Assembly (NCBI GenBank): GCA_963674745.2
Contig: CAXXDV010000003.1
Span: 2,208,001 to 2,272,000, forward strand
Source: Desulfosudaceae bacterium
Lineage (GTDB): Bacteria > Desulfobacterota > Desulfobacteria > Desulfobacterales > Desulfosudaceae
Length of the DNA stretch: 64,000 bases
Direction: 5' to 3'
In this document: one piece after another, positions 4,626 through 54,521 of the stretch
Position numbering within the stretch: position 1 is the stretch's first letter
Layout: each line of letters starts with the position of its first letter
Notes under the pieces: model-generated
What the model saw: only the letters and a program-made list of their open reading frames with translations
What the model was told of the DNA's origin: nothing
The model's database searches: none
Program-made: the position numbers and the translations under genes

Positions 4626-4687
4626 CACATGCGGTTCCAACAAGACCGGTTGGCAAAAGACGGATCTTCAGGCATAGGAGTGCCGAT

Positions 4688-6193: not shown

Positions 6194-6277
6194 CGACAAT
6201 GTCCCTCAAAAAATCAGTTATCATTTTATAGTGAAAGGGCACAAACGGGGGGGGGCGAGTGGACGTGACGCACAAGC

Positions 6278-6301
6278 GGGCACGGCACGCCGTGCCCCTA
6301 C
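6278..6301 (-). repeat. GTAG-type REP-like palindrome
   Basis: Minus strand GTAGGGGCACGGCGTGCCGTGCCC: GTAG tetramer followed by a GC-rich hairpin, between convergent genes. Confidence 0.6.
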
Positions 6302-6333
6302 ATGAATTCGTAACCAGCACCGTGAAGAAGGGA

Positions 6334-8643: not shown

Positions 8644-8659
8644 AAAATATAAATTCAGC

Positions 8660-10302: not shown

Positions 10303-12012
10303 CTATCGCCAGGTAGAACCGGCACGGTTAATATCCGTGCCGAAATTAGACTGGGGGTTAGCGGCAGTACCGTTAAACGGCGTGGCGATGTTCATGCTCC
10401 GGGTCCTGCAGGAGGCCGGAGAAGCACTAAACGTCAATCGCGCGTTACTGCCAGCGGTGCCATTATCGCCATAATCGAGATTGGGGATGATCCATTCTTC
10501 ACTGGCAGAGGATACTTCATCCACCAGGCTGCGGTTGCCGCAAAGCACGATTTTCGTGTAGGGAACGGATATATCATTTATAGCCCAGCCACCGGTATGA
10601 TCCGCCCCAGCAACGTCGGCGAAGCCGTCCGCATCCCTGTCCGGATCGGCCTCCCGGAAGCGGCCGACACGCAGCTCACCGAGAATATATTCTTTCCTTG
10701 ACGGGGTCGTGCGCACGGCTCCTGAGGTCGATGTTCCCATGGACGATACCCCGCTGTCCGGATAATAAACCGTCCGGGAATAATGGCCGCAGAGATAAGC
10801 GATCAGATAGGTATCATTACCGTTTCTGCCATCGCAGTTTCTGCTAGACGTGGCCACTTCAATACGCATGGGGCGGGTGGGGCTGGTATAGCCGATCTGA
10901 TTTTGAATGTAATTTTGGGTATTCATGTTAAAGTTACCGCCTCCGGCGCTGGCGGCGTACTGTCCGATATAATTGGCGCGGGTATAGCTTCGTTGATGAT
11001 GAACACCCTGAACAAATTCTCCCGAGATATTCCAGTCCGTGAGAAAAGCATCCGGATCGGTGGTATCGGTATATGTATAATAATACGTGGAATTAAAAGA
11101 TTTCCAGTTGGGGTATGGCGTTGTCGAATCGCCTTTGTCGATGATGTCGCCGGCAAACATAACGCCGTTGGCCGTGGCCTCCTGGCCCTGTAAACCGAAA
11201 AAGCCCAGGGTACCGCCGCCGGGCCGCAACCCCAGCTCGCCCCCGATACCGGTATTGCCGCGGATAATATCTGAGGTATAAGGGTTATAAACAGCATTTC
11301 CGGCGGTGCGATGCCAGTTTAACCCATCGCCGTTCATGTCGGCATTGGAGTCAACAAAGGGACTGGCGCTGGCGGAGCCAACAAAAAAAAGGCGCTGAAA
11401 AGATGAAAGGGGTGAAATAATGGAGTACATGAATTTGTGTTTGTTCGGATCGACATATTTTTCCGCCCAGAAAAGCTCGCCCAATTTTAAACCAAACACA
11501 TCGTAGGCCGTATCGCCGGCCGTGCCGGGCACCACGAACTGACATAAATCCCAGTTCCAGAACATGGCGGTACTACCGTAACCTGTCATGGAAATAATAA
11601 CGGCATCCGTCGCAAGGCCGGTTAAAGCAGTTGCCTGGCTGCCGACATCTATGTCAAAACCCAGCCAGTTCACGTTAATCGGCGTGTTCTCATCTTCAAA
11701 ACTGCCGCAGAAGGCCATGGAATGGGCACCGGCATCATTAGTGCCTAAATTCAGATATTGGGCATTGCTGTCATCGGTAATCACAAACTTGGCATCCCAG
11801 GTCGTATCGGGGGTCAGGTCCAGCAGGAAATCATCGACCTGTAACAGGGTGGCGTCAAGGTCCGTGAAGTAAAGGTTGACGCCGCTCTGGCCCATTACAC
11901 TCCCCAGGTCCTCGTTGGACAGGGGCTTCATGGCGTCAGCCCGGTTAACGGTAACGGCAACCGTGAACACCATCATTCCCACCATGATAAGTCTTTTGAA
12001 TAAACCAGTCAT
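10303..12012 (-). CDS. Secreted protein with DUF6160/FilA-like N-terminal motif (large putative minor subunit)
   Basis: Signal peptide ending ADA, then MKPLSNEDLGSVMGQSGV; G/N/T/D-rich body. Confidence 0.7.
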   Translation of the reverse strand: MTGLFKRLIMVGMMVFTVAVTVNRADAMKPLSNEDLGSVMGQSGVNLYFTDLDATLLQVDDFLLDLTPDTTWDAKFVITDDSNAQYLNLGTNDAGAHSMAFCGSFEDENTPINVNWLGFDIDVGSQATALTGLATDAVIISMTGYGSTAMFWNWDLCQFVVPGTAGDTAYDVFGLKLGELFWAEKYVDPNKHKFMYSIISPLSSFQRLFFVGSASASPFVDSNADMNGDGLNWHRTAGNAVYNPYTSDIIRGNTGIGGELGLRPGGGTLGFFGLQGQEATANGVMFAGDIIDKGDSTTPYPNWKSFNSTYYYTYTDTTDPDAFLTDWNISGEFVQGVHHQRSYTRANYIGQYAASAGGGNFNMNTQNYIQNQIGYTSPTRPMRIEVATSSRNCDGRNGNDTYLIAYLCGHYSRTVYYPDSGVSSMGTSTSGAVRTTPSRKEYILGELRVGRFREADPDRDADGFADVAGADHTGGWAINDISVPYTKIVLCGNRSLVDEVSSASEEWIIPNLDYGDNGTAGSNARLTFSASPASCRTRSMNIATPFNGTAANPQSNFGTDINRAGSTWR

Positions 12013-12046: not shown

Positions 12047-13282
12047 TTAATCGACGCTATTCAACCGCCAGGTGATGAACTCGTTTTCAAAATAGTGGTC
12101 GGGATCCTGCTCCAGGGGCGGCCAGTTGCGGTATTCGTTTACGCCGGCAATAACGTTCCAGCCGGAAAACCGCCGGTCGGTAATATCGACCATCAAAAAA
12201 AAGCCATGGTTCTTGTCCTGGAAATTACCCACAATGTTGTTGATCGATGTACCGTCGCCTCCGGACTGGATCTGGTTCATGTTGGTGTTGAACCAGAACT
12301 GTCGAAACGACCCCTGACTGGAGGTATCGGGATTAAACTGAAAACTTGAAAGCGACCAGAATTGATCAAGAATGGGATCCCGCTGCAATTGAAAACACAC
12401 CATATTGGTCAGGTCCGTGGCCTCGGGGGACAGCTTGGACATTTCGGCGTTCATCCAGCCGCTGGAAACAAGTGGCCTGACCGAAGAGTAACCATAAAGG
12501 CAGTTGGAGCCGAGGGCAAACCGCCTCAGCAGCTGGTCACTTTCCCCCCAGTTACTGAACTCGGCCCGGAGCACAAGGCCGTATATCCGCATGGGGTACT
12601 CTTCGCTGAAACCCATTTTGAGATTTTCCCAGTTAATGTCCCATTGGGTTTCCGGATGGTCACTGCATTGGGTTGAACCGAAATAATTCCATGGGCGAGT
12701 GGCTGACAAATTAACATATTGACCCAGAGTGATCCGGTTGCCGGTGCGGGCAGAGGAACTATAACGATCATGGATCCTGTCTTCCCGGTTACTGTTTGTA
12801 GATTCATATGGGTTATCACCAGCTGAGCCACCATAAGTAGCTGATATCTCTTGATTACCTCTGGTGTTTGATCTGTTCTGGGGGCCATAGACCATGGTGT
12901 AATCGGAATCCATGGAAGCCATATCACCCAGTTCCGAGACGGTCCGGGGATAATTCCCCATCTTGAGGGCGCCGATTTCGCCATAATTTTCAAGGTAGAT
13001 ATCACTGGAAAAACGGACTACGGTAACACTCTCGCCCATACCGGTATTTACGGAATCGTAAAAATCGTCCTGGCTGATGGCCATTTCAAGGAGATGTCCG
13101 CCTTCAAGCTCGCCCAGCTCGTGGTTGGTCATGGCATTAAGACCGGCCGATACTGGTAGAGACGAAAAAATCATCATCAAAATACCCAGAAGCGCCAGCA
13201 AACCGGGCTGAACGCTGCAACGGGCACATACGACATGTTTCTTTTTTACTGCACGACCTTCGATCTGAACCCCCATATTCAA
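12047..13282 (-). CDS. Secreted protein with double-glycine-like pro-leader
   Basis: Hydrophobic segment ending PVSA, then GLNAMTNHELGELEGG; start codon uncertain (TTG 13282 or ATG 13276). Confidence 0.65.
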   Translation of the reverse strand: MNMGVQIEGRAVKKKHVVCARCSVQPGLLALLGILMMIFSSLPVSAGLNAMTNHELGELEGGHLLEMAISQDDFYDSVNTGMGESVTVVRFSSDIYLENYGEIGALKMGNYPRTVSELGDMASMDSDYTMVYGPQNRSNTRGNQEISATYGGSAGDNPYESTNSNREDRIHDRYSSSARTGNRITLGQYVNLSATRPWNYFGSTQCSDHPETQWDINWENLKMGFSEEYPMRIYGLVLRAEFSNWGESDQLLRRFALGSNCLYGYSSVRPLVSSGWMNAEMSKLSPEATDLTNMVCFQLQRDPILDQFWSLSSFQFNPDTSSQGSFRQFWFNTNMNQIQSGGDGTSINNIVGNFQDKNHGFFLMVDITDRRFSGWNVIAGVNEYRNWPPLEQDPDHYFENEFITWRLNSVD

Positions 13283-15981: not shown

Positions 15982-15985
15982 ACGT

Positions 15986-18145: not shown

Positions 18146-18222
18146 AGTGACAATTGATCGTCATCCCGGTTTTGCCGAAAAACCCTTTTTACATCTTTGC
18201 CGACTTCGACTAAAATAGCCGC

Positions 18223-34800: not shown

Positions 34801-34937
34801 AATCATATCAAAAACAGATATGACGATTTGGTAAAATTCCTGGCCCGGATTGAGGCCCAGAAAGAGATGATGGAGAATGACGACAAAAAATCTTCTACGG
34901 GTATACGACATGACGACAGGGAGAAGCTAATCGATCC

Positions 34938-37133: not shown

Positions 37134-37139
37134 CATTTC

Positions 37140-39593: not shown

Positions 39594-39680
39594 AGCTTAA
39601 GCAGTCACTGAAATATACCAATCCTGTCCCGGATGCCCGATCAATGGCAATGACGGGCGGAGGGGCTCCCGACGTCCGGA

Positions 39681-41675: not shown

Positions 41676-41826
41676 TGACGACAAAGATCAGACATGACGT
41701 TTTTTGGCAAAAAAAAGACAAAAAAGGGCAAACGCCGGTTCTGCGTTGTTGCACCGGAAAAATAAAAAACATGCAACTATTTTATAATATTATAATTTAA
41801 GCCAAAGACGGCCTTTAAAATAAAGC

Positions 41827-41842
41827 TGGCATTTTATTTGCT
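41827..41842 (+). promoter_or_regulatory. Candidate sigma54 (-24/-12) promoter
   Basis: TGGCATTTTATTTGCT: GG-N10-GC with TGGCA and TTGCT. Confidence 0.5.
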
Positions 41843-41901
41843 TTTTTATTTTTGATACGCTTTTGCTTCATCAGCTTATTTGTTGGCGGGGAAAAAAAAT
41901 A

Positions 41902-41957
41902 TTGACAGGTTTATTTTGTCAGTGTTATGAGTTGATGACGTAAACACTGTTTACGTC
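41902..41957 (+). promoter_or_regulatory. Sigma70-like promoter followed by a perfect 21-bp palindromic operator
   Basis: TTGACA 41902-41907, weak TGT-TATGAG -10, then GACGTAAACA-C-TGTTTACGTC (41937-41957). Confidence 0.65.
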
Positions 41958-42125
41958 TGTGAAAGGGGGTGATAAGGGCAAACTGGTTCTATCCAGACTC
42001 TGTTTTTTAGAGTCGACTATCGTCGGACTACCGTGCAAAACCCAAGCACATCCTTGGTCGGCGAAAAAGTTAAAAGTACTCAATTTAGTAAACCAAACGC
42101 TCAATCAACTTGTGGAGGAAACAGA

Positions 42126-42662
42126 ATGAAGAAGTTAATCGTTAGTTTAGTTGTCGGCGCTTTACTGGTATTGCCGCTTTCCGCTATGGCCATGGACGCC
42201 ATCAGCAATGCTGAGCTTGACGGCGTAGCCGGTCAGGCCGGTGTTACCATCGGCTTTGGCGGTACCACCACCACCACCATCGATTTCAGCGAGCTGAGCT
42301 GGGGAGATCCGGACGGCCTTGGTGCCGGTTGTGGCGCTAATCAGGGCTGGCTGATCATTGACGGTGATATCAGCATACAGCAGATAATTGCCGACGGCCA
42401 GACGCTGACACTGGATGTCGGTACCACCAACGCGGACAGCTGTAGCCCGGGCACAGACGCCGTTGTGATTCCCACTTCCGGAACCACCTTTGTCGCGGTG
42501 GGGCTGCCGTCTACCACAATGAACATCAGTGTTGCCAATCAGCTGACCATCGGGATGGGCACCGCAGCCGGCACCATTGCCGGTACAGTCGGCCTGCTGA
42601 ATCTGGAAAGCCTGTCAGTTGATGCGGGTACCCCAACTACCCTTTACATCTGGGCGCACTAA
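42126..42662 (+). CDS. Secreted DUF6160/FilA-like subunit (putative major subunit, copy 1)
   Basis: GGAGGA RBS; signal peptide ending SAMA; MDAISNAELDGVAGQAGV; G/T-rich beta pattern; ends LYIWAH; 178 aa. Confidence 0.8.
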   Translation: MKKLIVSLVVGALLVLPLSAMAMDAISNAELDGVAGQAGVTIGFGGTTTTTIDFSELSWGDPDGLGAGCGANQGWLIIDGDISIQQIIADGQTLTLDVGTTNADSCSPGTDAVVIPTSGTTFVAVGLPSTTMNISVANQLTIGMGTAAGTIAGTVGLLNLESLSVDAGTPTTLYIWAH

Positions 42663-42696
42663 TTCGTTTTTCAATCTCAGTACGTTTCGGGGGAAT

Positions 42697-43299
42697 ATGT
42701 CTGCTTCAACGGGCATAAATCAAAAAAAAGAGTGGTTAAGACGGATTACCTTTGCCGGCCTTATCCTGATGTTCGGCTTTGCCGTTGTTTCACCGCTACC
42801 CTGCTCGGCAATGGAAGCCCTGACCCAACAGGAACTGGGTGATTTATCCGGAAGGAGCGGTATCAGTATGGGATTCGCCAGCCCTGCGACCGTCAGGGCG
42901 ACGTTTACCTCGCTGAGCTTCGGGGACTCAGATGGCTGGGGCGATGGCACAGGCGGAACTAATAATGCCGGCTGGCTGGTACTCACCGGCAACGGTGCCG
43001 AGTTAAACATTGAGATTCCTGCTAACGCGCAACTTGACATTGATGTCGGCCACACCGTAAGCACCTGCGCCCCCAAGAGTGGCGCAGCTTACGCCGGGTT
43101 AAAAATTCCGGCCGACTCCACTTTTTTTACTTTCAGCCTGACCGAAACCAATATTGTCCTGGTGGTTCCGGATACTGTCTATATTGGTCTCAGCCAATCG
43201 GGCAGTTCAGTAGGTGATTATATGGGTTATATGCGGGCGGACAATGTCGCCATCGATAAAGCGAACAAGAAAAGCTCCTGCTATATTTGGACGCATTAA
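42697..43299 (+). CDS. Secreted DUF6160/FilA-like subunit (divergent paralog)
   Basis: Signal ending PCSA; MEALTQQELGDLSGRSGI; SFGDSDG..GWLV, LDIDVG, ends YIWTH. Confidence 0.78.
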   Translation: MSASTGINQKKEWLRRITFAGLILMFGFAVVSPLPCSAMEALTQQELGDLSGRSGISMGFASPATVRATFTSLSFGDSDGWGDGTGGTNNAGWLVLTGNGAELNIEIPANAQLDIDVGHTVSTCAPKSGAAYAGLKIPADSTFFTFSLTETNIVLVVPDTVYIGLSQSGSSVGDYMGYMRADNVAIDKANKKSSCYIWTH

Positions 43300-43359
43300 C
43301 GATAGCGCCCCCGTACTGAAAAAAAGAGGTATTACAACAACCAACATAAGGAGAAAGAA

Positions 43360-43896
43360 ATGAAAAAACTCGGATTAATTTGTTTAATCGTTAGTTTACT
43401 GGCCCTTCCGATGTCGGCCATGGCCCTGGAAAAAATGTCCGGAGAAGATCTGGGCGGCGTTACCGGTCAGGCCGGTGTTACCATCGGCTTTGGCGGTACC
43501 ACCACCACCACCATCGATTTCAGCGAGCTGAGCTGGGGAGATCCGGACGGCCTTGGTGCCGGTTGTGGCGCTAATCAGGGCTGGCTGATCATTGACGGTG
43601 ATATCAGCATACAGCAGATAATTGCCGACGGCCAGACGCTGACACTGGATGTCGGTACCACCAACGCGGACAGCTGTAGCCCGGGCACAGACGCCGTTGT
43701 GATTCCCACTTCCGGAACCACCTTTATCGCGGTGGGGCTGCCGTCTACCACAATGAACATCAGTGTTGCCAATCAGCTGACCATCGGGATGGGCACCGCA
43801 GCCGGCACCATTGCCGGTACTGTCGGGCTGCTGAATCTGCAGAGCCTGACCGTTGATGCGGGTACCCCGAGTACCCTTTACATCTGGGCTCACTAA
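43360..43896 (+). CDS. Secreted DUF6160/FilA-like subunit (putative major subunit, copy 2)
   Basis: AAGGAG RBS; signal ending SAMA; LEKMSGEDLGGVTGQAGV; mature part nearly identical to 42126-42662. Confidence 0.8.
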   Translation: MKKLGLICLIVSLLALPMSAMALEKMSGEDLGGVTGQAGVTIGFGGTTTTTIDFSELSWGDPDGLGAGCGANQGWLIIDGDISIQQIIADGQTLTLDVGTTNADSCSPGTDAVVIPTSGTTFIAVGLPSTTMNISVANQLTIGMGTAAGTIAGTVGLLNLQSLTVDAGTPSTLYIWAH

Positions 43897-43938
43897 GATC
43901 CCTGTGTCCGTTTGATGTATTATAACGGATAACAATAT

Positions 43939-43990
43939 GGATGTTTTTGGGCAGGCGGTAAAATAAATATACCCCTGCCCGAAAACATCC
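43939..43990 (+). terminator. Long intergenic stem-loop (terminator or mRNA-stabilising element)
   Basis: GGATGTTTTTGGGCAGG ... CCTGCCCGAAAACATCC inverted repeat; no clear U-tract. Confidence 0.55.
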
Positions 43991-44009
43991 CTTATAATAA
44001 TGCGCTATT

Positions 44010-45119
44010 ATGCAACCATTTAGAACCTTTACCCTCAATCCCAGCCTTATCAGGCAGACGTTCACCTGCTTTCTTTTTCTTTTGATTACCGTTTCTGCTT
44101 ACGCCGGCACAACTGAATTGTTGTCCGACGCCTGCATAGCAGACATTACAGCCGGTGCCGGTGATACGGTAATAACGGCTTTTTATGAGACCCCGACCAC
44201 AGCCTACATTGATAATACGCCCCGCTGGTGGGGGGATATGGATGGTGCTGCCGGTGCCGGATGCGGTAACGCACCCGGATTTATCGTCACCAACCTTCCC
44301 TACAATGATTTCCAGCATGATAATTTTAAGTATTCATTTAACAGTCAGGCTGAATTGGATGCGTTCATAAATGATCTGGCTACGTTGCCGGGCAGCCCAA
44401 TTAATGTGCTTGCCACTGACTATATCAAAAGCAACCCCGGTACCGACCATATTTTTTCCAATGACGGCAGGCCCCCCCGTGTCCAGGAAATCATCATTAC
44501 CACTGACCAGAAAATAAACGGAGATTTTGTCCGTACCCATAACGGCCAGGTCATTACCCAGAACGTGCGTTTTGACCTTGAATTCCTGCCGCCTTACGCG
44601 AGATCTTACACTACTGAAACAACGGAGCAAACAGCTGAGGGCAGGGACGGGAAAACCGGTCGCCTGCTCCCCTCCAGATCTTTCAGACAGTACAATCAAT
44701 ATGAATGGGTGCAACGAAATAATTCCGGCGTTGAAATCATACGGAATGCGGACGGAACATTCTACTTTACCCAGCGTCAGCCACACACGTTTAATTTCGG
44801 TGCGATTTATCTGGAATGTACGACTACGGGCGATCAGCCCATACTTTCATCTTCTGGTTATGTTGTCGTACCGCCAAACACCACTTTTCTGAGAAACACC
44901 ATTTATAATGATTTGAATGTTTACAGCCCTGCTTTGGGCATGACGATCGGCCTTGCCCCTGCCGGAGAAACCGATCCGGAAACCGGGGAAATTTCTCCCG
45001 ACCTTGATCACTATCAGGAACTGGGAATACTTGATATAAGAAATTTGAATATTTCGCTAAAAGGCGGCAACGATATTTATGTTTATGCCAATGAGGATCT
45101 GGATGTGCGCTGCCCCTAA
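44010..45119 (+). CDS. Secreted FilA-like paralog with large insertions (putative minor subunit)
   Basis: Signal ending SAYA; LLSDACIADITAGAG; WGDMDG..GAGCG, VVPPNTTF, MTIGL, GILDIRNLNI, IYVYA align with the small subunits. Confidence 0.7.
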   Translation: MQPFRTFTLNPSLIRQTFTCFLFLLITVSAYAGTTELLSDACIADITAGAGDTVITAFYETPTTAYIDNTPRWWGDMDGAAGAGCGNAPGFIVTNLPYNDFQHDNFKYSFNSQAELDAFINDLATLPGSPINVLATDYIKSNPGTDHIFSNDGRPPRVQEIIITTDQKINGDFVRTHNGQVITQNVRFDLEFLPPYARSYTTETTEQTAEGRDGKTGRLLPSRSFRQYNQYEWVQRNNSGVEIIRNADGTFYFTQRQPHTFNFGAIYLECTTTGDQPILSSSGYVVVPPNTTFLRNTIYNDLNVYSPALGMTIGLAPAGETDPETGEISPDLDHYQELGILDIRNLNISLKGGNDIYVYANEDLDVRCP

Positions 45120-45260
45120 AAAAGACTTCCAGATCATCGACTTCTATTATCACATTTCCTCTTTGATTATCTCTTATTTTAAGCAAGCGGTTATTACCAA
45201 ATTTATTTACACGGTTTTAATAAACGGAACCAGAACATTCGTGTGTTTTTTAATTTTTTC

Positions 45261-45312
45261 TTTACAAAACAAGTTTCATATGATTAAGCTTAATACGATA
45301 AACAATGTTCAC
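45261..45312 (+). promoter_or_regulatory. Sigma70-like promoter with a third copy of the operator
   Basis: TTTACA (45261-45266), 18 nt, TAAGCT (45285-45290), then ATAAACAATGTTCAC (45298-45312). Confidence 0.5.
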
Positions 45313-45353
45313 CAGTTGATTTTGCTTAAACCGGTGCCTGGGGGAGACTAATT

Positions 45354-46136
45354 ATGCACGTACTTATTGCTTTCTTAATCAGTACTGCCTTGCTTTCCGG
45401 TTTTCTCCCCTCAAGGGAGATACCTGACAATGAGGTGCGTTTTATTTATGCCCCTATTGACGGTATAACAACCAACACGGATTACTATCTTCCCCACGCT
45501 CTCCAGCCGGTCGAACTGCATTTTGAGATGAGAAACGCGTCGGATATAGAAAAATCACGCATTATTTCTCAGAAATATGACTATAGTTGCGGATCTGCTG
45601 CCCTGGCCACACTCTTAAGATACCACCTTGCTGAAGATTTTGAGGAAACGCACATTATTCACGGCCTGCTGAAATACGGGGACAAGGAAAAAATTATAGA
45701 GAGAAGGGCGTTCTCCCTTCTGGATATGAAAAAATTTGTTAATGCCATCGGATACCAGGGCGTGGGCTACAAGGCTGAAATAGAGGACCTTGAAACGCTG
45801 AACATGCCCTGCATTCTACCCATGGAACTTTACGGTTATCGCCATTTTACCGTGTTCAAAGACGTTTATAAAGGCCATGTTTTTCTGGCTGACCCGTTTC
45901 AGGGAAACACCAGCTACCCGATAGAACAATTTAAAAAGTTGTGGCATGAAAATGTTATTTTTGTCGTTTATCCTTCAGGAGAAGAGCAATTGGCCTTATT
46001 AAAATTGAAAAACGACGATCTCCGTTTTATGGATGAAGATCGGACACTGGATATCATGTTTCGAGACAGAATGTTAGAGAAAGAACCAATGCCGATTGAG
46101 ACAGATCCTAAAACACGACAATACTATAAAAGATAA
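45354..46136 (+). CDS. Stand-alone C39-family cysteine peptidase (FapD/FilB-like)
   Basis: QKYDYSCGSAALATLL, FSLLDMK, HFTV, LADP; hydrophobic N-terminus; no ABC domain. Confidence 0.92.
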   Translation: MHVLIAFLISTALLSGFLPSREIPDNEVRFIYAPIDGITTNTDYYLPHALQPVELHFEMRNASDIEKSRIISQKYDYSCGSAALATLLRYHLAEDFEETHIIHGLLKYGDKEKIIERRAFSLLDMKKFVNAIGYQGVGYKAEIEDLETLNMPCILPMELYGYRHFTVFKDVYKGHVFLADPFQGNTSYPIEQFKKLWHENVIFVVYPSGEEQLALLKLKNDDLRFMDEDRTLDIMFRDRMLEKEPMPIETDPKTRQYYKR

Positions 46137-46160
46137 ACCGCAATGCGCCTCAGGAGGTAC

Positions 46161-48092
46161 ATGTTGAAGGCAAATATAAAAATTATTTTCATGGCGGCGT
46201 TATTACTGACAGCCCTGGTAATAAATGGAAACGGTCAGGAAAACCAGACAGGTACCAAGGCCAGCGACCAGGCTGAAACCGGTTTTTCAAAAAGCCTCAC
46301 CTCGAGAGAGTTGGAGCGGCAAACCGCTGCCGGCCTGAAAAAGGACCTGGCCCCTGAAGCACTTGAGGCAGCCACTGGTGCCGGCCTGAAAAAAAATCTG
46401 GACAGTGATGAACTGCAGGAGTCCACGGCCGCCGGCCTGAAAAAAGACCTGACCACTGAAGAGTTAAATTCATCCATTGGAGCGGGCATCAGGCGTGTCT
46501 CATCGCTGGAACTGGATAAAGCATCCGGCCGGGGATTTATGACCGACATGACCCGGGCGGAGCTGGAAAATCTTGTCGGTAAGGGCTTTATCGGCAAGCT
46601 TACACCTGATGAAATTGAACAAATCAGCGCCCGGGGAACATTATCTGATGAACAGGCGCGAATGACCATCAAAGACCTTGCTTCTGTTTTCGCTCAGGGC
46701 GTTAAATTCATCATTGACACATCAAAATTTTCAGAAGAGGAGCTGGGCGAAATTAAAGGCCGGGGCACCCTTCAGGATATCGGTAAATTCCCCTACTCGA
46801 TCCAGGTGGGGGTTTTCAGGGACAAAGCCAATGCCATTGCCATGCTGGAAACCATTAAAGGACAAGGCTATGATCCTTATATTTTCAGAACCCGTGATGA
46901 CCTCGGCAATTCGCTGTTTGCCGTTCGCCTCGGCGATTATGAATCCATTCAGGAAGCTTATGCCGAAGTGACACATTACAAGGGCAAAGAACACAAGGAA
47001 GCTTTTGTCACCTACATCAACTCTACCAAAAGTGTGGATGAAAAAGACATCGTTAATGAAAAAGATGAAAGCGCACGTCCGGATCTTTCTAATCAGCTTG
47101 ATTTTGACAAAGAATACGCCAGCGAGGATCTGAGGGCTCTTTACAAACAGATTCAAGCACTTGAAGGTGAAGTTGATAAATTACGGACTGAGTCGCAAGC
47201 CAGGAAAAAACTCAAGATGACAGAAGCCGAGCAGCAAAAGGAGGAAGAAGAAATCCTCTCCGCTGCCGGGCGTGAGTATGTGCTGTCGCCGGCCGGAACT
47301 TTAAGCTTTGATTATAATTTCGGATACACCCATAACAGTTATGACGAGGCTGAATGGAACGTTTCCCGCATCAAGCATACAGCTGATCATACACTGACGA
47401 ACACCCTGTCAACCACTTACGCTCTGTTCGACAACCTTTCTTTGTCCGCGTCCATTCCGTTCAAATATAAGTATCACGATCTGGGTGTCAGCGGGTCAAA
47501 AGATGTCAGCGATTTAGGCGACCTTTCTTTAAGCTTCAGCTGGCAGCCTACCAAATCCCAACAGTCGATACCGCCTATCATTGTTACTACCAGTGTTTCC
47601 GCGCCTACCGGTCGGGGACCGTATGAAATCAACCCGGAAGTTGATTTATCAACCGGTTCCGGTATTTATTCGTTTTCACTTGGTGTCAACACCAACAAAA
47701 AAGTCGATCCGGTAGTGGTTTACGGGGGGCTTGCTTATTCCTTTCTGTTAAAGGAAAAAGACTTGGACTACTATCTGGGAACAGGCGCTGTTCTTAATGA
47801 AGTAGAACCGGGCGGGGGGGTTGCCTTGAGCCTGGGGCTTGGTTATGCCATGTCCTATGCGGCAACTATCAACGTAGGCATCAGTATGACTTATTCCTTC
47901 GGGTCAACGTATTATTATCTGGACGGCAGTAAGTCGGAAACCGGTGATGCGGTCAGCGCCAGCCTCAGCCTGGGTACCGGCTGGCGTTTTTCAAGCCAGC
48001 GGACAATCAGTTTTTCCGTTGGCATCGGCCTGACCAATGATGCTTCGGACTTCTCATTTTCCTTTAGAATACCCTTTGATTACGCACTGTAA
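46161..48092 (+). CDS. Outer-membrane transporter (FapF/FilC-like barrel) with N-terminal repeats, SPOR domain and coiled coil
   Basis: AGGAGG RBS before ATG 46161; signal peptide; 17-aa repeats; SPOR-like YSIQVGVF...AVRLGDY; coiled coil; LGDLSL, APTGRGPY, STGSG, DPVVVYG, GIGLT.DA.DF.F.FRIPF. Confidence 0.8.
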   Translation: MLKANIKIIFMAALLLTALVINGNGQENQTGTKASDQAETGFSKSLTSRELERQTAAGLKKDLAPEALEAATGAGLKKNLDSDELQESTAAGLKKDLTTEELNSSIGAGIRRVSSLELDKASGRGFMTDMTRAELENLVGKGFIGKLTPDEIEQISARGTLSDEQARMTIKDLASVFAQGVKFIIDTSKFSEEELGEIKGRGTLQDIGKFPYSIQVGVFRDKANAIAMLETIKGQGYDPYIFRTRDDLGNSLFAVRLGDYESIQEAYAEVTHYKGKEHKEAFVTYINSTKSVDEKDIVNEKDESARPDLSNQLDFDKEYASEDLRALYKQIQALEGEVDKLRTESQARKKLKMTEAEQQKEEEEILSAAGREYVLSPAGTLSFDYNFGYTHNSYDEAEWNVSRIKHTADHTLTNTLSTTYALFDNLSLSASIPFKYKYHDLGVSGSKDVSDLGDLSLSFSWQPTKSQQSIPPIIVTTSVSAPTGRGPYEINPEVDLSTGSGIYSFSLGVNTNKKVDPVVVYGGLAYSFLLKEKDLDYYLGTGAVLNEVEPGGGVALSLGLGYAMSYAATINVGISMTYSFGSTYYYLDGSKSETGDAVSASLSLGTGWRFSSQRTISFSVGIGLTNDASDFSFSFRIPFDYAL

Positions 48093-48110
48093 AACGTGAC
48101 AGGAGAATTG

Positions 48111-49928
48111 ATGCGATCACGACCACAGGCCAGACCGGGATGGTTATTTTTAATTGCCTGTTTTATATTCAGCCTCGGCGGCAGTATCAACTGCCAGGCA
48201 GCCCTTTTTGAAAACATGGCCATCTGTGCCAAGGCCATCTCGCTGGCAAACTCCTGTACCGCCTATCCTCCGGATCAAATGTCCATTCACTATAATCCGG
48301 CCGGGCTATCCACTGTTCATGACGGTCTCCAATTGAGCCAGGGGCTTCTCACCGCCTCGTTTGCATTAAAATCAAGGTTTGATCCGGATCCGGACTTTCC
48401 CGGATGGCTGGGCGGAATTTACAGCGGGGAGCCGGGTGATTCTGATTATTACGACTACCGCCCCGAAGCCGATCCGGTTGCCGGCCAAAGCGGTACCAGT
48501 TCAGGTGTTCATCTTTACCTTCCCCTGATGGGCTCCCAGGACATGAGTTCTGTCGGTATGCCGACGCCGTTTGGTTTTTCTCTGGCCGCAGCCCCTTTCC
48601 CTTTTGGCCTGTCTTACCGGAAACCGAATTCACGCGTAACCTTCGGATTCGGTTTATATGCCCCTGCCATGGGCGGGTTTTACCGTGATGACGATGACCC
48701 CGCCCGGTACAACGGACGGGCGCTTTCCATGCAGCACATTGTTTACGCCGCACCAGCCGTCAGCTATCAACTGACGGATACCCTTTCCGTAGGGGTTACC
48801 CTGGGGCTTGGTCAGGGTGCCACCGAGATTGACACGGACATGCGATTGCCCAACGACATGACCGCATTGACGGAAATTCTCGGTATATCAACGCAAGGAT
48901 TGAACATCCCCGTTATTTCTCAATTGACCCTCCCCCCGCCATGGATGGGCGGCGGTGTCGGCCCTTATGACGATATCGGCAACATGTCTCTTGCTGTCCG
49001 TGATGACTATACACCGAGCTACAATCTTGGTCTTCTTTGGGAACCGTCCAACTGGTTTTCATTCGGTCTCTGTTATCAAAGTGAAGTCAAAATGGAATAT
49101 AGCGGCAGCTTCAAATTCACCTACAGCGAGGAATTTCAAGGTTTTGTCGCCTGGATGGGCAGTTCGCCACTACTCCTGGCCGTTTCCCAGCTGCTGGATC
49201 TTCCCTACCGATCCACACCTTACCAGCAAGGGGCAGTCAACTTGACAGGTGGAGACTTCCCGGAGAGAATCCAGACCGGTATCATGCTTCGCCCCATCCG
49301 CCGTCTTAGGCTGATGTGTGATCTGCACTGGATAAACTATTCCAAGACCAAGGCCTATACCATAATCTTTGACCAGGACATCCAGGCTTTAATGATATCC
49401 AAATTCATCGGGCACCTGGATGGGAATAACAGATTAAAGATTGACATGAACATGAAGGATGAAGTCCATCTCAGCTTCGGCCTTGAATACCAACTGCTGG
49501 ACTGGCTGTCCTTAAGATGCGGTTATGAAGACAGAAAAACATCTGTAAACATGGACTATTTCTCGTTGCTGGCACCGCTGGCCGATATAGACTACTATGG
49601 TGTCGGCCTGGGCATTCAATTAAAAAGCGGCCTGAAAATCGATCTGGCCGCCGGGTTTCTCAAGTCCGACTCATGGGAGGTGCCCAACAATTCCAGTAAG
49701 AATCTGAACTCTACGGAATTTATCGATGCAGTGTACAACCCCTATGGGGGTATGGATGTTTCGGGCAGCATGGAAGCCACCCTCATTGCCGCCAATTTTT
49801 CCCTGCCGTTCGAATATCTTTACCGGGTCGGCGACTTGTTAAAAGATACCGGGCAAAAAATCAAAGAGAATATGCCTTTTATGAAAAAATCGAAAAAGCC
49901 TGAAACACAGGACCCGATCAATAAGTAA
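48111..49928 (+). CDS. OmpP1/FadL/TodX-family outer-membrane protein (FilD-like)
   Basis: Signal peptide; AISLAN, HYNPAGL, FGFGLYAP, PAVSYQLTD.LSVG, NLGLLWE, FGLEY, LRCGY; AGGAG before ATG 48111. Confidence 0.85.
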   Translation: MRSRPQARPGWLFLIACFIFSLGGSINCQAALFENMAICAKAISLANSCTAYPPDQMSIHYNPAGLSTVHDGLQLSQGLLTASFALKSRFDPDPDFPGWLGGIYSGEPGDSDYYDYRPEADPVAGQSGTSSGVHLYLPLMGSQDMSSVGMPTPFGFSLAAAPFPFGLSYRKPNSRVTFGFGLYAPAMGGFYRDDDDPARYNGRALSMQHIVYAAPAVSYQLTDTLSVGVTLGLGQGATEIDTDMRLPNDMTALTEILGISTQGLNIPVISQLTLPPPWMGGGVGPYDDIGNMSLAVRDDYTPSYNLGLLWEPSNWFSFGLCYQSEVKMEYSGSFKFTYSEEFQGFVAWMGSSPLLLAVSQLLDLPYRSTPYQQGAVNLTGGDFPERIQTGIMLRPIRRLRLMCDLHWINYSKTKAYTIIFDQDIQALMISKFIGHLDGNNRLKIDMNMKDEVHLSFGLEYQLLDWLSLRCGYEDRKTSVNMDYFSLLAPLADIDYYGVGLGIQLKSGLKIDLAAGFLKSDSWEVPNNSSKNLNSTEFIDAVYNPYGGMDVSGSMEATLIAANFSLPFEYLYRVGDLLKDTGQKIKENMPFMKKSKKPETQDPINK

Positions 49929-50093
49929 CACTTTTTTTAGAAGGACAAAATAAGCTCAATATCAGCTTTTTAATTCAAAAGGCCAAAACTCCTGATAGAA
50001 TTCACATTGCAGTGTAGTGTCAGGATGCGTTCTTGCGATGTGCTGATATTGAATTTTTTTTTGCGGTCTTTAATCACATGGGAAAGAGGAAAA

Positions 50094-51764
50094 ATGAGAT
50101 TACTGCTGTTTTCTTTACTGCTTGTCACATCACCGGGCATTTTATTCGCAAACCAGGCAAAAACCACGATAGAAGAAAGGATGGTTCCTCTAGGTCATGG
50201 CATCAGCGGAGAAGAGATATATGTCAACTCACTTGAAATAAGCCCCGATTTTAAACATATCGGCTATGTTTCCAGAATTGGTGGGACATTCCGGGTGTGG
50301 CTGGACGGAGTGTCCAAGAAAAGCCACAGTGGTGTTACCAGGCAGTCTCCGTTCTTCTCTCCCGAACAGAACCGGCTGGCATATATTGCCAATGAAGGGG
50401 ACAACATGTTTGTTGTCATTGATAACCACGAACATGACCGATATAAACAAGTCGGAACCCTGACGTTCAGCCCTGACGGTTCTCGAGTCGCGTATCGGGC
50501 CGAAGATGCCAAGGGAAGTCAGTTTGTCGTTATTAACGGTAAAGAGGGGCCGAAATTCGATGTGGGAATTACTAATGATATCGGCATTGTCTTCAGCCCT
50601 GATTCAAAGCATGTGGCTTATGTCGGTATCAACGACAAGGACTCCGTTATATTTGTTAAAGACAACAAAAAAATAGACAGTTTTAAACAAATCAAGCAGG
50701 TCAAATTTTCCCCTGACTCAAATCACCTTGCCTATTCTGCCATGAAAGACGATGGATGGGTCGTTGTCCTGGATAATAAATCTGGCCAAACGTATATAAT
50801 GGTCGACAACCTGATGTTTTCTCCTGACAGCACTCAGCTGGTTTATATGGCTCAAAAAAGCCGCCGCTCGATTATCGTAATAAACAACAAAGAAATCAGT
50901 GAGGGAATCGGTGTGCTTTTCCCCTCCTTTTCGCCCCATAAGGGACGGTTTGCGTACATCATTGCTGAAAAGAATAATAAATTTTGCTATGTCCTGGATG
51001 GGGAAAAAGAACTTTTAGTGGATAAACCCGGCCGGATGATTTTCAGCCATGATGATACCAGCGCGGCCTATGCCGCTTTGATAAAGGACAAGTGGCATGT
51101 TTTAAAAGACGGTGTTAAGGGCCCGGCTTTTAAAAAGATCTACGCTTTTTCCTATTCCCCTGCCAGCAATGATATTCTGTACGCCGCTGAAAATGAAGCG
51201 GGTCAAAAATGTGTTGTAGTCAACCACATTCCGGAAAAATTTTATAACTCAATTGGCGCACCCGTATACAGCAAAAATGGTCAAAAATATGCATACGTGG
51301 CCACGAACAACGACGGGAAGATGTTCATAATCATCAATGGACAGGAGCAAAAAACGACATATCCCATAATCGGGATTCCCGTGGAAGAAGTCAATGAGTC
51401 GGGGGTCAGCGCCCAGCATCCGTATTTCAGTGACACCGGCAAACGGCTGGCTTTTCCGGTTTACGATCCTGACCAAAAGAAAGCCTTCATGGTGGTTGAC
51501 GGAAAAAACCAGCAAACCTTTGACGCGGTTATGGCGCCCTGCTTTTCTCCCGATGAAAAACACATCGCCTATATGGGCAAAAAAGGAAACAGCTGGCACA
51601 TGGTCGTGAATGGGAAACCCGGCCGCCATACCTGCGACGGAATGATTCGCGGTGCAACCATCGCATTTGATCCCGCTAATAACTGCTTTTTTATACTGGT
51701 TGCCAGCAACACTGAATCAGGCCTTTCTTTTTACCGCATGGAGGCTGAGATCAAAAGCCCTTAA
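50094..51764 (+). CDS. Secreted TolB-like/PD40 beta-propeller repeat protein
   Basis: Signal-like N-terminus; more than ten FSPD...AY....VV.DG repeats; start ATG 50094 (ORF track 50007). Confidence 0.75.
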   Translation: MRLLLFSLLLVTSPGILFANQAKTTIEERMVPLGHGISGEEIYVNSLEISPDFKHIGYVSRIGGTFRVWLDGVSKKSHSGVTRQSPFFSPEQNRLAYIANEGDNMFVVIDNHEHDRYKQVGTLTFSPDGSRVAYRAEDAKGSQFVVINGKEGPKFDVGITNDIGIVFSPDSKHVAYVGINDKDSVIFVKDNKKIDSFKQIKQVKFSPDSNHLAYSAMKDDGWVVVLDNKSGQTYIMVDNLMFSPDSTQLVYMAQKSRRSIIVINNKEISEGIGVLFPSFSPHKGRFAYIIAEKNNKFCYVLDGEKELLVDKPGRMIFSHDDTSAAYAALIKDKWHVLKDGVKGPAFKKIYAFSYSPASNDILYAAENEAGQKCVVVNHIPEKFYNSIGAPVYSKNGQKYAYVATNNDGKMFIIINGQEQKTTYPIIGIPVEEVNESGVSAQHPYFSDTGKRLAFPVYDPDQKKAFMVVDGKNQQTFDAVMAPCFSPDEKHIAYMGKKGNSWHMVVNGKPGRHTCDGMIRGATIAFDPANNCFFILVASNTESGLSFYRMEAEIKSP

Positions 51765-51790
51765 CCCGGATATTTCTTGCGGCCAGATTA

Positions 51791-52570
51791 TCAATCCTTC
51801 AATTGCCGGCTGATTTCAGCGGCCACCTTTTCACCGGACAGCAGCATACCACCGAAAATCGGTCCCATACGGGGACCGCCAAAGGTGGCGTTGCCGGCCA
51901 TTCCGGTTACATAAAGGCCGGGATAGACCTCCCGCGTGTTCTCCAGGGTCAATGATTCAGCCCGTTCCGACCACATGGATTTTTCACCTTCTATGCCGCC
52001 GCTGGCGGTATTCAATGTTCCGGGGGTTTTCTCGGATACCACCCGGACCACTTCAGTAGCATGGCCGGTGGCGTCAATCACAAAACCGGACCTGATGGCC
52101 AATGGATCGATGTGTAACCCGGCCATCTCGACCGGAGACCAGTTAAGCACCAGGCCGGTCACCCGTCCCGGCCGGATGAGCACGTCCTCCACGCTGACGC
52201 AGTTAAAAACCGTCAGACCCGCTTTAACCGCCCGGCTGGTCAGGGTCGAAACAGCTTCCACGGCATCAGTGGTGTAATAATCATCCTGATATTGACGATA
52301 ACCGACACCTGTTTCATCCAGGATGTGCAGCGCGCTCTTTTGTACCACGATTTCGTTGAACATCATGCCGCCGCCCCACATGCCGCCGCCGATACTTAAT
52401 TTACGTTCATACATAGCCACCTTGTGACCGGCCCTGGCCAGATAAAAACCGGCCACCAGTCCGGACGGTCCACCGCCGACAATGGCCACGTCTATCTCCA
52501 GATTGGCTGTCAATTTTTCATAATACCGGTCGATAATTGCCCGGGTGATGATGACTTCATTGAGTTCCAT
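51791..52570 (-). CDS. thi4: Sulfide-dependent thiazole synthase (Thi4 family)
   Basis: [44 protein letters not shown]. Confidence 0.93.
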
Positions 52571-52573
52571 GTA

Positions 52574-53863
52574 TTATTTTCCTTTTATCTCCGAAATCGT
52601 GTTATGCAGCTTAACCGCGCACAGATCGCCGCACATGGTGCATATCTCTTTTTCTCCGGCTTCGCTCTCCTCACGGCGCTTTCCGGGTAAAACCGGATCC
52701 AGAGCAAGGCGGTACATGCCTTTCCAGTCCAGTGCTTTCCGACATGCCGACATCTCAATATCCCGTTCTATTGCGCCCGGCACGCCTTTGGCAATATCAC
52801 CGGAATGAGCGGCAATCCTTGCCGCAATCACGCCCATACGGACGTCTTCCATGTCCGGCAGGCACAAGTGTTCGGCCGGGGTGACATAACAAAGAAAGTC
52901 CGCCCCGGCAGCGGCCGCCACCGCTCCTCCGATGGCGGCGGTAATATGATCATATCCCGGGGCGCAATCCGTGGTCAACGGGCCGAGCACATAAAACGGC
53001 GCGCCATCACAAAGCTCTTTTTCGAGCTGCATGTTGGCTGCAATCTGGTTCAGGGGAACATGTCCCGGCCCCTCGATCATCACCTGAACCCCGGCCGCTC
53101 TGGCGCGCCGCGCCAGTCCGCCCAGGACCACCAGCTCTTCGATCTGGGCAGCATCCGTGGCATCGGCTATGGCACCGGGGCGCAGCCCGTCGCCCAGGCT
53201 CAACGTCACATCATATTTGAAAGCAATGGCCAGTAAACGTTCAAAATCCGCATACAGGGGGTTCTCCTGCTGATTATGGTGCATCCACGAAGCCAGAAGC
53301 GCGCCGCCCCGGCTGACAATACCGGCCACCCGATCGCCTTCTCTGGCCAGACGACTCGCCTTCTGGGTCACGCCGCAATGAACGGTAATATAATCTATCC
53401 CCTGTTGACACTGCTCTTCGATAACTTCGAATAACCTGTCCGGCACCATTTCATAAAAAGCCCGTGCCTGGCAACTCATCTCGGACGCCACCGCGTAAAT
53501 GGGGACCGCCCCTACCATGACCGGTGAATTTTCCAGAACGAGCTTCCTGACGGCTTGCAGGTCGCCTCCGGTGGACAAATCCATCACACTGTCGGCCCCG
53601 GCGTTAACGGCTATTTTCAATTTTTTAAGTTCTTCAGCCGTATCAAAATGCTCCGGAGAAGTGCCGATATTGGCATTGACTTTCGTCCTCAGGCCGTTAC
53701 CGATTCCCATGGCCGGAAAATCCCGGTTAATATTCTTCGGGATAACAATCCTGCCGGAAGCGACCCCTTCCCTGATCATTTCAGGCGAACGGTTTTCACT
53801 TGCCGCGACAAGCTTCATCTCGTCCGTTACAACGCCCTGTCTGGCCTGGCTTAACTGTGTCAT
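52574..53863 (-). CDS. thiC: Phosphomethylpyrimidine synthase
   Basis: [58 protein letters not shown]; next to thi4 and downstream of a TPP riboswitch. Confidence 0.93.
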
Positions 53864-54000
53864 AATACAGCCTCCTTTTTATAGCCCCGGTGATTCAAAA
53901 GCTCAAAATTGTTTTCCAACTGTTCTTTTTTTAAAAGCCCGCCGGTAACTGCTGCTTTCTCAAGAACGATTATTCCACAACCCTGGTTTATCGTCGGCAG

Positions 54001-54030
54001 ATCTGGATTCTGACGTTCGCCAGAATGACG
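54001..54030 (-). repeat. CGTCATTC-type REP-like palindrome
   Basis: Minus strand CGTCATTCTGGCGAACGTCAGAATCCAGAT hairpin. Confidence 0.5.
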
Positions 54031-54071
54031 AATATGGAGATAATGTTTCATACCAGAAATTGCGAGTTCCA

Positions 54072-54110
54072 TCACTTAATCACCTAAACACATAATCACA
54101 TAATCACTAA
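54072..54110. repeat. 8-bp repeat array (CA-rich orientation)
   Basis: tcacttaa tcacctaa acacataa tcacataa tcactaa. Confidence 0.8.
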
Positions 54111-54279
54111 GCATTAACCACCAGATCACACGCCAAGGCTGAAGCGAATTGTCACCTTAACACCTAAAACATTAACACCCTGATATGATTGACAGTTGTC
54201 AAATGGAAAATAGTTCTCCTGCCAGTTTTTAATCTGGTCTCCTTGCATTTATGAAATTCCAGGGTACCCGGAGGGGCGG

Positions 54280-54430
54280 AACCTTTAATGCGACGGTTGT
54301 TCACTCTGATATACGCGGGTTGGATACCGCATGACTTTTCTTCGTCGCGGAGCTGCCTCTGTCTAAAATCTGGAGTTAGGCCGAAAGGCTTATCCTATAG
54401 GGTGTCCGAGGGTTCTCCTTTCCGTGGCTG
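54280..54430 (-). ncRNA. Putative bridge RNA / seekRNA (boundaries approximate)
   Basis: Segments match the target and donor junction sequences: 54399-54405, 54360-54368, 54302-54312, separated by hairpins. Confidence 0.7.
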
Positions 54431-54521
54431 CGCCCCCGCGGCTGCCCTGGAATATGATGTTGTAAATGGTCTATCGAACCTCCTGTTGATCATGTTTTTG
54501 TATTTTGCCTTTTGATTGGCT

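Follow-up and report, generated by a model that had tools for sequence, protein, structure and literature searches.

Among the described secretion systems, those closest to the one considered here are the functional amyloid (Fap) system of Pseudomonas and the putative Fil pilus system of Acinetobacter. FapD, a periplasmic C39 peptidase, is catalytically required for Fap secretion; its substrate and recognition motif are left undefined in the available parts of Rouse et al. (2017; PMC5557850) and of PMC6173795, and its role is still undefined in those of the latter paper and of a 2026 bioRxiv preprint. Rouse et al. put forward, as a speculation, two possible targets of FapD: FapE, or GG/GA motifs within the linker of FapF, the transporter whose N-terminal region controls the plug and secretion. 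The same source mentions non-catalytic C39-like domains of type 1 secretion ATP-binding cassette (ABC) transporters that bind their substrate without cutting it. Fil proteins figure in the accessible literature as a vaccine antigen or adhesin. The subject of this report is a FilC/FapF-type outer-membrane transporter encoded on the plus strand at 46143..48092 of a 64,000-nucleotide stretch from a Desulfosudaceae bacterium (GenBank assembly GCA_963674745.2, contig CAXXDV010000003.1, positions 2,208,001 to 2,272,000 of the forward strand), which is called the window below; between its signal peptide and its SPOR domain this transporter carries nine tandem units that resemble the pro-leaders of proteins encoded in the window.

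The observation is real: the architecture of the transporter, the similarity of its units to the leaders, their conservation and their independent recurrence are documented in the following sections. The interpretation is plausible and has an independent second example. The reading favoured here, to which a probability of roughly 0.4 is assigned, is that the array consists of pseudo-leaders recognised by the periplasmic C39 peptidase of the same operon, because, among the components of the locus, this peptidase alone has a fold of a kind that reads such leaders. Literature searches on DUF6160, Acinetobacter FilA-D, FilF and periplasmic C39/double-glycine systems yielded no account of a transporter with leader-like arrays, in agreement with the initial annotation of this DNA, which had noticed the array in the sequence and knew of no such architecture.

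Architecture of the Transporter

The gene encodes 649 amino acids (aa), and its product matches the NCBIfam profiles FilC (E 6.6e-55, residues 293–647) and FapF (E 1.3e-18, residues 456–645 only). Since the FilC profile covers residues 293–647 only, the signal-proximal 290 residues, comprising the array and the SPOR domain, are an addition. Neither curated cut-off is reached (187 bits vs 630 for FilC, 67 bits vs 700 for FapF), and the protein is a distant superfamily relative, not an equivalog, of FilC or FapF. Its database copy (P0206) has 642 aa and starts 7 codons downstream. A translation artefact or a wrong frame was considered and rejected, as 649 codons are open and nine proteins, the window's own included, match the array region with E <=6e-38.

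The order of parts was established from the translation, family profiles and an AlphaFold2 (AF2) model with a mean predicted local distance difference test (pLDDT) value of 75. A predicted signal peptide occupies about residues 1–31 (46143..46235, +), with an AF2 helix at 2–27 and a probable cleavage site at ...VINGNG/QENQ. It is followed by the array (residues 52–208; 46296..46766, +), the SPOR domain (residues 217–289; 46791..47009, +; Pfam PF05036, E 1.4e-10, 41.8 bits vs a cut-off of 21, pLDDT 93–97), a long helix (residues 328–357; 47124..47213, +), a second helix at residues 361–375 and the beta-barrel (residues 386–649; 47298..48089, +), whose strands are modelled with pLDDT 83–97. The barrel has the FapF fold: in a Foldseek search of the PDB the model matched 5o67, 5o65 and 5o68 (best E 2.5e-21, TM(target) 0.80–0.86), and the top 10 chains listed are all FapF (E 2.5e-21 to 4.5e-19, TM(target) 0.78–0.86). 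The initial annotation had placed a SPOR domain, a coiled coil and a barrel behind the array; this order is borne out, and the helix at 328–357 is taken, by analogy, as the counterpart of the periplasmic coiled coil of FapF described in the available text of PMC5557850, so that its coiled-coil and trimeric states are presumed, the AF2 model being of a monomer. The array arm is periplasmic, as follows from the SPOR domain and from the topology of FapF given in the same source.

The nine units follow the pattern h-[ST]-x-x-E-L-x-x-x-x-[GA]-x-G, in which h is a hydrophobic residue. They are, all on the plus strand, R1 (46296–46334, LTSRELERQTAAG), R2 (46347–46385, LAPEALEAATGAG), R3 (46398–46436, LDSDELQESTAAG), R4 (46449–46487, LTTEELNSSIGAG), R5 (46497–46535, VSSLELDKASGRG), R6 (46548–46586, MTRAELENLVGKG), R7 (46599–46637, LTPDEIEQISARG), R8 (46662–46700, MTIKDLASVFAQG) and R9 (46728–46766, FSEEELGEIKGRG). 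A strict regular expression recovers eight of the nine and a looser one all nine. Each of the peptides first listed for this region is present in the translation of 46143–48092, and the spacing reported as mostly 17 aa was reproduced: the units start at residues 52, 69, 86, 103, 119, 136, 153, 174 and 196, at distances of 17, 17, 17, 16, 17, 17, 21 and 22 aa. Counted back from the putative scissile bond, positions -12 and -7 are hydrophobic in 9/9 units, position -2 is G in five and A in four, position -1 is A in four and R, K or Q in five, and position -4 is hydrophobic in 3/9 (L, I, I), with V in R8 in addition. R1–R4 carry G-A-G or A-A-G. The canonical double-glycine pattern (G at -2; G, A or S at -1; hydrophobic residues at -4, -7 and -12) does not describe these units. 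The array is predicted to be disordered (pLDDT mostly <50), with short helices at 88–100, 105–111, 121–127, 138–145, 155–163, 169–182 and 198–204.

Part of the array is also detectable as a 51-nt tandem repeat in the DNA (46326..46462, +, within R1–R4). The 14-mer GCCGGCCTGAAAAA occurs three times at exactly 51-nt spacing (46329, 46380 and 46431; 0.09 occurrences expected, with 0/100 shuffles reaching three), Tandem Repeats Finder gives 2.7 copies of a 51-nt unit with 74% matches, and a repeat search at the DNA level returns three copies of 71–75% identity (the D1 family). It follows from these three results that only the four N-terminal units are still recognisable DNA repeats, so that the 51-nt recurrence reported initially is confirmed for R1–R4 and does not extend over the rest of the array. 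When the array by itself was scanned against Pfam and NCBIfam, all matches were sub-threshold; one of them, to the leader part of the lacticin-481 family (E 0.029), serves as a hint at most, and a look-up of residues 45–215 in the ESM Atlas gave no usable match.

Likeness of the Units to Subunit Pro-Leaders

Six proteins encoded in the window, as many as had been reported, carry a double-glycine-type leader-like motif immediately behind a Sec signal peptide. They are DUF6160 subunit 1 (42126..42662, +; Pfam DUF6160, 31.3 bits vs a cut-off of 27), with MDAISNAELDGVAGQAG after the signal peptide; subunit 2 (42619..43299, +; FilA E 6.2e-6), with ...AMEALTQQELGDLSGRSG and a true start that is probably internal (~42700); DUF6160 subunit 3 (43360..43896, +; Pfam DUF6160, 38.4 bits), with LEKMSGEDLGGVTGQAG after the signal peptide; a 369-aa secreted protein (44010..45119, +) with the variant leader LLSDACIADITAGAG, which has no family match and has syntenic homologues in loci L001, L002 and L033; a 569-aa secreted protein (10303..12012, -) with the leader MKPLSNEDLGSVMGQSG, a weak DUF6160 match (E 0.00145) and 15.6 bits under the leader hidden Markov model (HMM) described below; and a 411-aa secreted protein (12047..13282, -), recognised in translation and of no Pfam or NCBIfam family, with the canonical double-glycine leader MTNHELGELEGG. 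The pro-leader of the subunits spans 15 residues: h(-15), h(-12), [ST], E/D(-8), L(-7), V/I(-4), G(-2) and Q/R(-1). Elsewhere in the genome, outside the window, the six-frame segment C3_-1373892 of contig C3 encodes a seventh small secreted protein of this kind, with a signal peptide followed by ...IPDAKLDSITGQSG (leader HMM 8.7 bits).

The motif recurs beyond the window. It begins at the predicted signal-peptidase site in 20 distinct DUF6160 leaders, which were collected from 14 other genomes of the phylum and have the consensus h-x-x-h-[ST]-[DE]-x-[EDQ]-[LM]-x-x-[VI]-[TS]-G-Q-x-G. Close homologues of subunit 3 show the strict leader pattern in 49/55 cases; among the six that miss it, five keep G-Q-A-G with a non-acidic residue at -8 and one (P0203) is without its N-terminus. 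An AF2 model of subunit 3 built with 40 sequences gave no usable fold (mean pLDDT 54).

The 20 foreign leaders served as the leader profile, both as an HMM of 17 positions and as a position-weight core from -12 to -1; since HMMER is weak on short repeated motifs, position-weight scans with genome-wide and regex-matched controls were used. In the forward direction three windows of the transporter exceed 10 bits (10.5, 10.4 and 16.5), the most among 50,290 six-frame genome segments, while 164 windows genome-wide reach at least 8 bits. In the reverse direction a profile from 24 repeat units was run over about 5.5 million genome windows and, self matches apart, ranked the leader of subunit 2 8th (18.7 bits), that of subunit 3 11th and that of the 569-aa protein 26th; the leader of subunit 1 was not among the 45 best windows listed. 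As a control, 1,991 genome windows matching the same loose regular expression scored -8.3 +/- 6.3 under a leader profile of the window's own lineage, against 0.4, 0.5, -6.4, 6.2, 8.6, 12.7, 4.6, 7.5 and 9.7 for R1–R9; when nine control windows were drawn 100,000 times and scored at the positions left free by the regular expression, no draw attained the mean of the units. Within the six frames of the window the strict motif matches three units of the transporter, the leaders of four subunits and nothing else. The support from position weights falls mainly on the SPOR-proximal units 5–9; unit 4 scores 1.0 bits under the foreign-leader profile and 6.2 under an own-lineage profile.

Comparison of the repeats with leader-coding DNA for traces of gene conversion found chance words of 7–12 nt only. 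As the repeats share no nucleotide similarity with the leader DNA, their likeness is maintained at the protein level. Taken together, the likeness of the repeats to the leaders appears real but loose.

Recurrence in Related Transporters

The sampling covered roughly 800 genomes, and arrays of two kinds were recovered. Type A, the lineage of the window, comprises nine clusters including the window's own, together with the metagenome-assembled genome loci L001 and L002, the metagenome locus L033, which encodes the transporter P0001, and genomes of the same family. Its order is signal peptide, 4–10 units, SPOR domain; the SPOR-proximal units (R5–R9 here) are positionally conserved and the LKKD-type units vary in number. 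Two variations on this plan were seen: in L102 (G630:C88) the 784-aa transporter open reading frame (4266–6617, -) has a tandemly duplicated module of four units and SPOR, and in P0001 (L033, 4728–6755) an SH3_3 domain (Pfam, 42.5 bits) stands N-terminal to the units, as it also does in L099, L104 and L105.

Type B comprises P0002 and P0215–P0222, from genomes G545, G500, G618 and G718. Here the SPOR domain comes first and is followed by 7–13 units of 16 aa, I-x-S-D-E-L-A-x-I-D-G-Q-T-G, which reproduce the DUF6160 leader, its G-Q-x-G end included. P0002 has eight windows at 16-aa spacing with 6.8–19.4 bits under the leader profile, and the type-B loci encode DUF6160 subunits and have a C39 gene directly upstream of the transporter. 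The relatives of P0002 came from GTDB genomes; a metagenome scan for its locus returned nothing. The repeat region of P0219 matches, below threshold, the leader portions of two models of double-glycine bacteriocin precursors, Lactococcin (E 0.027) and Bacteriocin_IIc (E 0.98); these are hints only. That the units stand on the other side of SPOR speaks for a separate origin or a rearrangement, and the motif is kept in type B in either case. On sequence grounds the type-B lineage is the strongest support for leader mimicry, and an independent one.

Conservation within the units points in the same direction. Information content peaks at -12, -11, -8, -7, -2 and +1 in 101 distinct type-A units; the peaks at -12, -8, -7 and -2 are common to these and to 73 type-B units, which also peak at -4, -1 and +2, and these shared positions coincide with conserved positions of the leaders. 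Leader mimicry is supported in four ways, by the two-way position-weight tests, the shared conserved positions, the second lineage and the intact C39 gene that adjoins the transporter.

The C39 Peptidase and the Possible Role of the Array

The gene directly upstream of the transporter (45354..46136, +) encodes a FilB/FapD-like C39 cysteine peptidase (Pfam Peptidase_C39, 66.3 bits vs a cut-off of 22; NCBIfam FilB E 1e-55 and FapD E 5.6e-37). Its N-terminal hydrophobic segment is compatible with a signal peptide as well as with an anchor, and the catalytic residues Q73, C79, H164 and D180 are invariant in 14/14 aligned sequences. The same position directly upstream of the transporter is held in the loci of 14/14 distinct repeat-bearing relatives (L103 is a duplicate of L001 in this count). 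The C-terminal 40 residues form a conserved tail beyond the Pfam domain in all 14 relatives (DLRF-x-DED ... QYYKR); this tail could be a docking element. For the C39 peptidase (residues 60–235) combined with R5–R9 (residues 112–215), a predicted complex gave ipSAE values of 0.19/0.19 vs a mark of 0.32, in a run without controls, and speaks neither way.

If the array is indeed read by this peptidase, the following sequence of events may be proposed. The subunits would reach the periplasm through Sec, and removal of the signal peptide would expose their 15-residue double-glycine-type pro-leader. In the periplasmic arm of the pore, nine short capped helices strung along a disordered chain would mirror the leader core, and these pseudo-leaders would be recognised by the C39 peptidase; with three arms per presumed trimer there would be up to 27 sites. 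The peptidase would thereby be concentrated beneath the pore, anchored to peptidoglycan through the SPOR domain, and incoming subunits would displace the pseudo-leaders, be clipped and enter the channel. A more specific form of the proposal, tentative and somewhat doubtful at present, sees in the array a multivalent pseudo-substrate scaffold that captures the C39 peptidase at the channel mouth as a processing station: the peptidase, whose N-terminal hydrophobic segment may hold it at the inner membrane, would be competed for by the real subunits, which would be clipped and handed into the pore. The initial annotation had offered, as the function of the array, tethering of the C39 peptidase at the pore or a cleavable gate or decoy; these functions are conjectural, as is the cutting, in addition to binding, of the units.

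A number of results weigh against recognition of the array by the peptidase. The check proposed by the initial annotation, a scan with the HMM of subunit leaders, left the transporter at E=86 (5.2 bits, place 57 among the 63 matches listed), and P0002 reached only E=11; that annotation had named as telling against itself repeats that do not score against the leader profile and are neither bound nor cut by the C39 protein, and the first half of this was found. Under the foreign-leader profile three units exceed 10 bits, four are weakly positive and two are negative, and with either leader profile units 1–3 score about zero or less. The window units end in [GA]-x-G and the leaders in G-Q-x-G, so that the two differ in register at the putative scissile bond. 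Identity of the repeats with the substrates' leader motif is supported by core scoring for units 5–9, but not for units 1–3, nor by the full-length HMM or the C-terminal end of the unit. Residue -1 is R, K, Q or A in the units, compared with the G, A or S of canonical C39 substrates. Co-variation with cognate leaders was not detected: type-A units score 7.21 bits under own-lineage and 6.81 under other-lineage profiles (difference 0.40 +/- 0.44), and type-B units do better under the non-cognate profile (9.80 vs 6.39 bits). Arrays are also rare, being absent from 30/30 barrel-matching open reading frames of other genomes in a sample of 401 genomes of the phylum and present in only 2/150 best representatives out of 1,256 matches; some of the array-less FilC-like transporters have P/A/E/K-rich linkers in its place. 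In the available parts of the literature searched, no cleavage or binding data were found for a substrate of any FapD/FilB-type peptidase.

The question of specificity bears on the main rival, a generic periplasmic spacer in which short capped helices determine how far the SPOR domain and the pore extend across the periplasm and in which the leader likeness is a common capping pattern with no specific partner. The pattern h-[ST]-x-x-E-h...G is also a generic helix-capping (capping-box) pattern, and with the repeat profile seven unrelated genome windows score above all of the subunit leaders; the likeness, though significant, is therefore not unique. A spacer would agree with this, with the disorder or low confidence of the array in AF2, with a copy number that ranges from 4 to 10 among close relatives, with the unrelated low-complexity linkers beside SPOR elsewhere (PAPVSEKAEV and PPKAVEE repeats in L008 and L010), and with the weak HMM scores and lack of co-variation noted above. 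Against it stand the regex-matched controls, which lie far below the repeats at unconstrained positions, the G-Q-T-G signature specific to DUF6160 leaders that a second lineage has independently, and the conservation of motif positions, not of composition alone, in 101 and 73 distinct units; nor is there the similarity to leader DNA that a recent, undecayed copy would have left. On balance a mere spacer is possible, with the odds leaning clearly against it.

The G-A-G or A-A-G of R1–R4, nearer to the canonical GG/GA, would suit another alternative, that the repeats are true cleavage sites at which the C39 peptidase trims the arm stepwise and so activates or retires the transporter. A precedent is the suggestion, in the accessible text of Rouse et al. 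(2017; PMC5557850), that FapD promotes cleavage of FapF at GG/GA motifs of its linker. Cuts within a type-A array would free no more than the SPOR-distal units, but in type B they would separate SPOR from the barrel, and therefore a single mechanism is not obvious. The R, K or Q at -1 also misfits the known C39 specificity, and stepwise trimming is regarded as decidedly improbable.

A further leader-like element lies at the junction of helix and barrel, where the conserved motif EEEEILSAAGREY (residues 367–379; 47241..47279, +) occupies near-invariant alignment columns. Columns E367–Y379 are invariant or nearly so in one alignment, a second alignment gives the consensus EILxAAGREY, and the motif is kept across FilC-like proteins, array-less ones too. 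This junction is the place where Rouse et al. speculated, in the accessible text of their paper (PMC5557850), that FapD might cut FapF. The motif fits the leader pattern loosely (E-8, I-7, A-4, G-2, R-1), and its leader signal is inconsistent, as it scores 0.5 bits in the window transporter vs 12.4 bits in P0002. Its presence in all 37 aligned FilC-like proteins gives some weight to the idea that the repeats are pseudo-substrates for the pore itself, occupying a leader-reading receptor or plug site and holding the channel shut or primed until subunits compete; the control of plug and secretion by the N-terminal region of FapF (available text of PMC5557850) and the occurrence of arrays on the transporter and nowhere else would agree with it. 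No leader receptor is known on FapF/FilC, however, the junction scores are inconsistent, and a known leader-binding fold is seen in no protein of the locus but the C39 peptidase; control of the pore by its own repeats is accordingly held to be improbable.

Should the array be recognised by the C39 peptidase, it would reveal a docking principle based on substrate mimicry that is not described for any secretion system, as well as the recognition code of FapD/FilB-type peptidases (h-12, E-8, L-7, h-4, G-2, Q/R-1). This matters as FapD-type peptidases are essential for the export of Fap amyloid, and an explicit candidate motif is now at hand, a minimal double-glycine-type leader present in 4–13 tandem copies on the transporters of two lineages. 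It would also suggest how a pore in the outer membrane can be coupled to a protease that is soluble or tethered to the inner membrane. Should the array be no more than a spacer, what is left is a linker specific to certain lineages, on a transporter of a known type.

Other Features of the Locus

Downstream of the transporter the locus continues with a FilD/FadL-family outer-membrane protein (48096..49928, +; NCBIfam FilD E 7.3e-94, Pfam Toluene_X 134 bits) and a periplasmic beta-propeller protein with TolB/PD40-like repeats (50007..51764, +), recognised in family scans and syntenic in relatives. With DUF6160/FilA subunits, a FilB/FapD-like C39 peptidase, a FilC/FapF-like transporter, FilD and a beta-propeller, the locus is, as judged from its predicted proteins, Fil/Fap-like. 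The NCBIfam scores are all far under the curated cut-offs (FilA 27–36 bits vs 220, FilB 189 vs 475, FilD 315 vs 970), and it is therefore a distant Fil/Fap-type system that is the equivalog of neither.

An Rfam scan of 41600–54600 gave no match and no thiamine pyrophosphate (TPP) riboswitch. The genes thi4/thiC lie at 51791–53863 on the minus strand, and an IS110-family transposase (54522–55637, -; Pfam DEDD_Tnp_IS110 and Transposase_20) follows closely downstream of both the locus and thi4/thiC. The locus is surrounded by genes for at least nine large membrane proteins (13732–20496 and 32581–41675, +; 6334–10210, -), with a polytopic N-terminal half and/or C-terminal tetratricopeptide (TPR) repeats. 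Pfam identifies TPR and DUF6056 in 13732–15981, Dpy19 and TgpA_N in 6334–8643 and TPR alone in 37140–39593; such proteins may be glycosyltransferase-like modifiers of the Thr-rich subunits. The adjacent paralogues 37140–39593 and 39681–41675 are nearly identical over about 430 aa, with their antisense open reading frames duplicated too, and this near-identity points to a recent tandem duplication.

Comparison with Known Systems

With the FapF/FapD pair of the Pseudomonas functional amyloid system (PDB 5O65, 5O67 and 5O68) the window system shares the barrel fold, a periplasmic N-terminal helix before the barrel and, according to the available parts of PMC5557850 and PMC6173795, a Sec-exported C39 peptidase encoded in the operon. 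It differs in that FapF has neither a SPOR domain nor a leader-like array whereas the window transporter has both, and in that its substrates are DUF6160 proteins, those of Fap being the amyloid repeat proteins FapB/C/E. The Acinetobacter Fil putative pilus system (NCBIfam NF050077–NF050080) is alike in its gene set, FilA/DUF6160, FilB, FilC and FilD, and different in that the window proteins score far under its curated cut-offs.

The double-glycine leaders processed by the C39 domains of peptidase-containing ABC transporters resemble the window motif in the hydrophobic residues at -12, -7 and -4, E at -8, G at -2 and the short helix, and the window protein 12047–13282 has a textbook ...ELGELEGG. 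Unlike them, the window motif is periplasmic, lies behind a Sec signal peptide, has Q, R, K or A at -1 and would be served by a free-standing peptidase; on the transporter it is tandem, internal and cargo-less. The non-catalytic C39-like domains of type 1 secretion ABC transporters, as presented in the available text of PMC5557850, are a precedent for a C39 fold that docks rather than cleaves, whereas the C39 protein of the window keeps its catalytic residues and the repeated element is located on the outer-membrane partner and not on the substrate.

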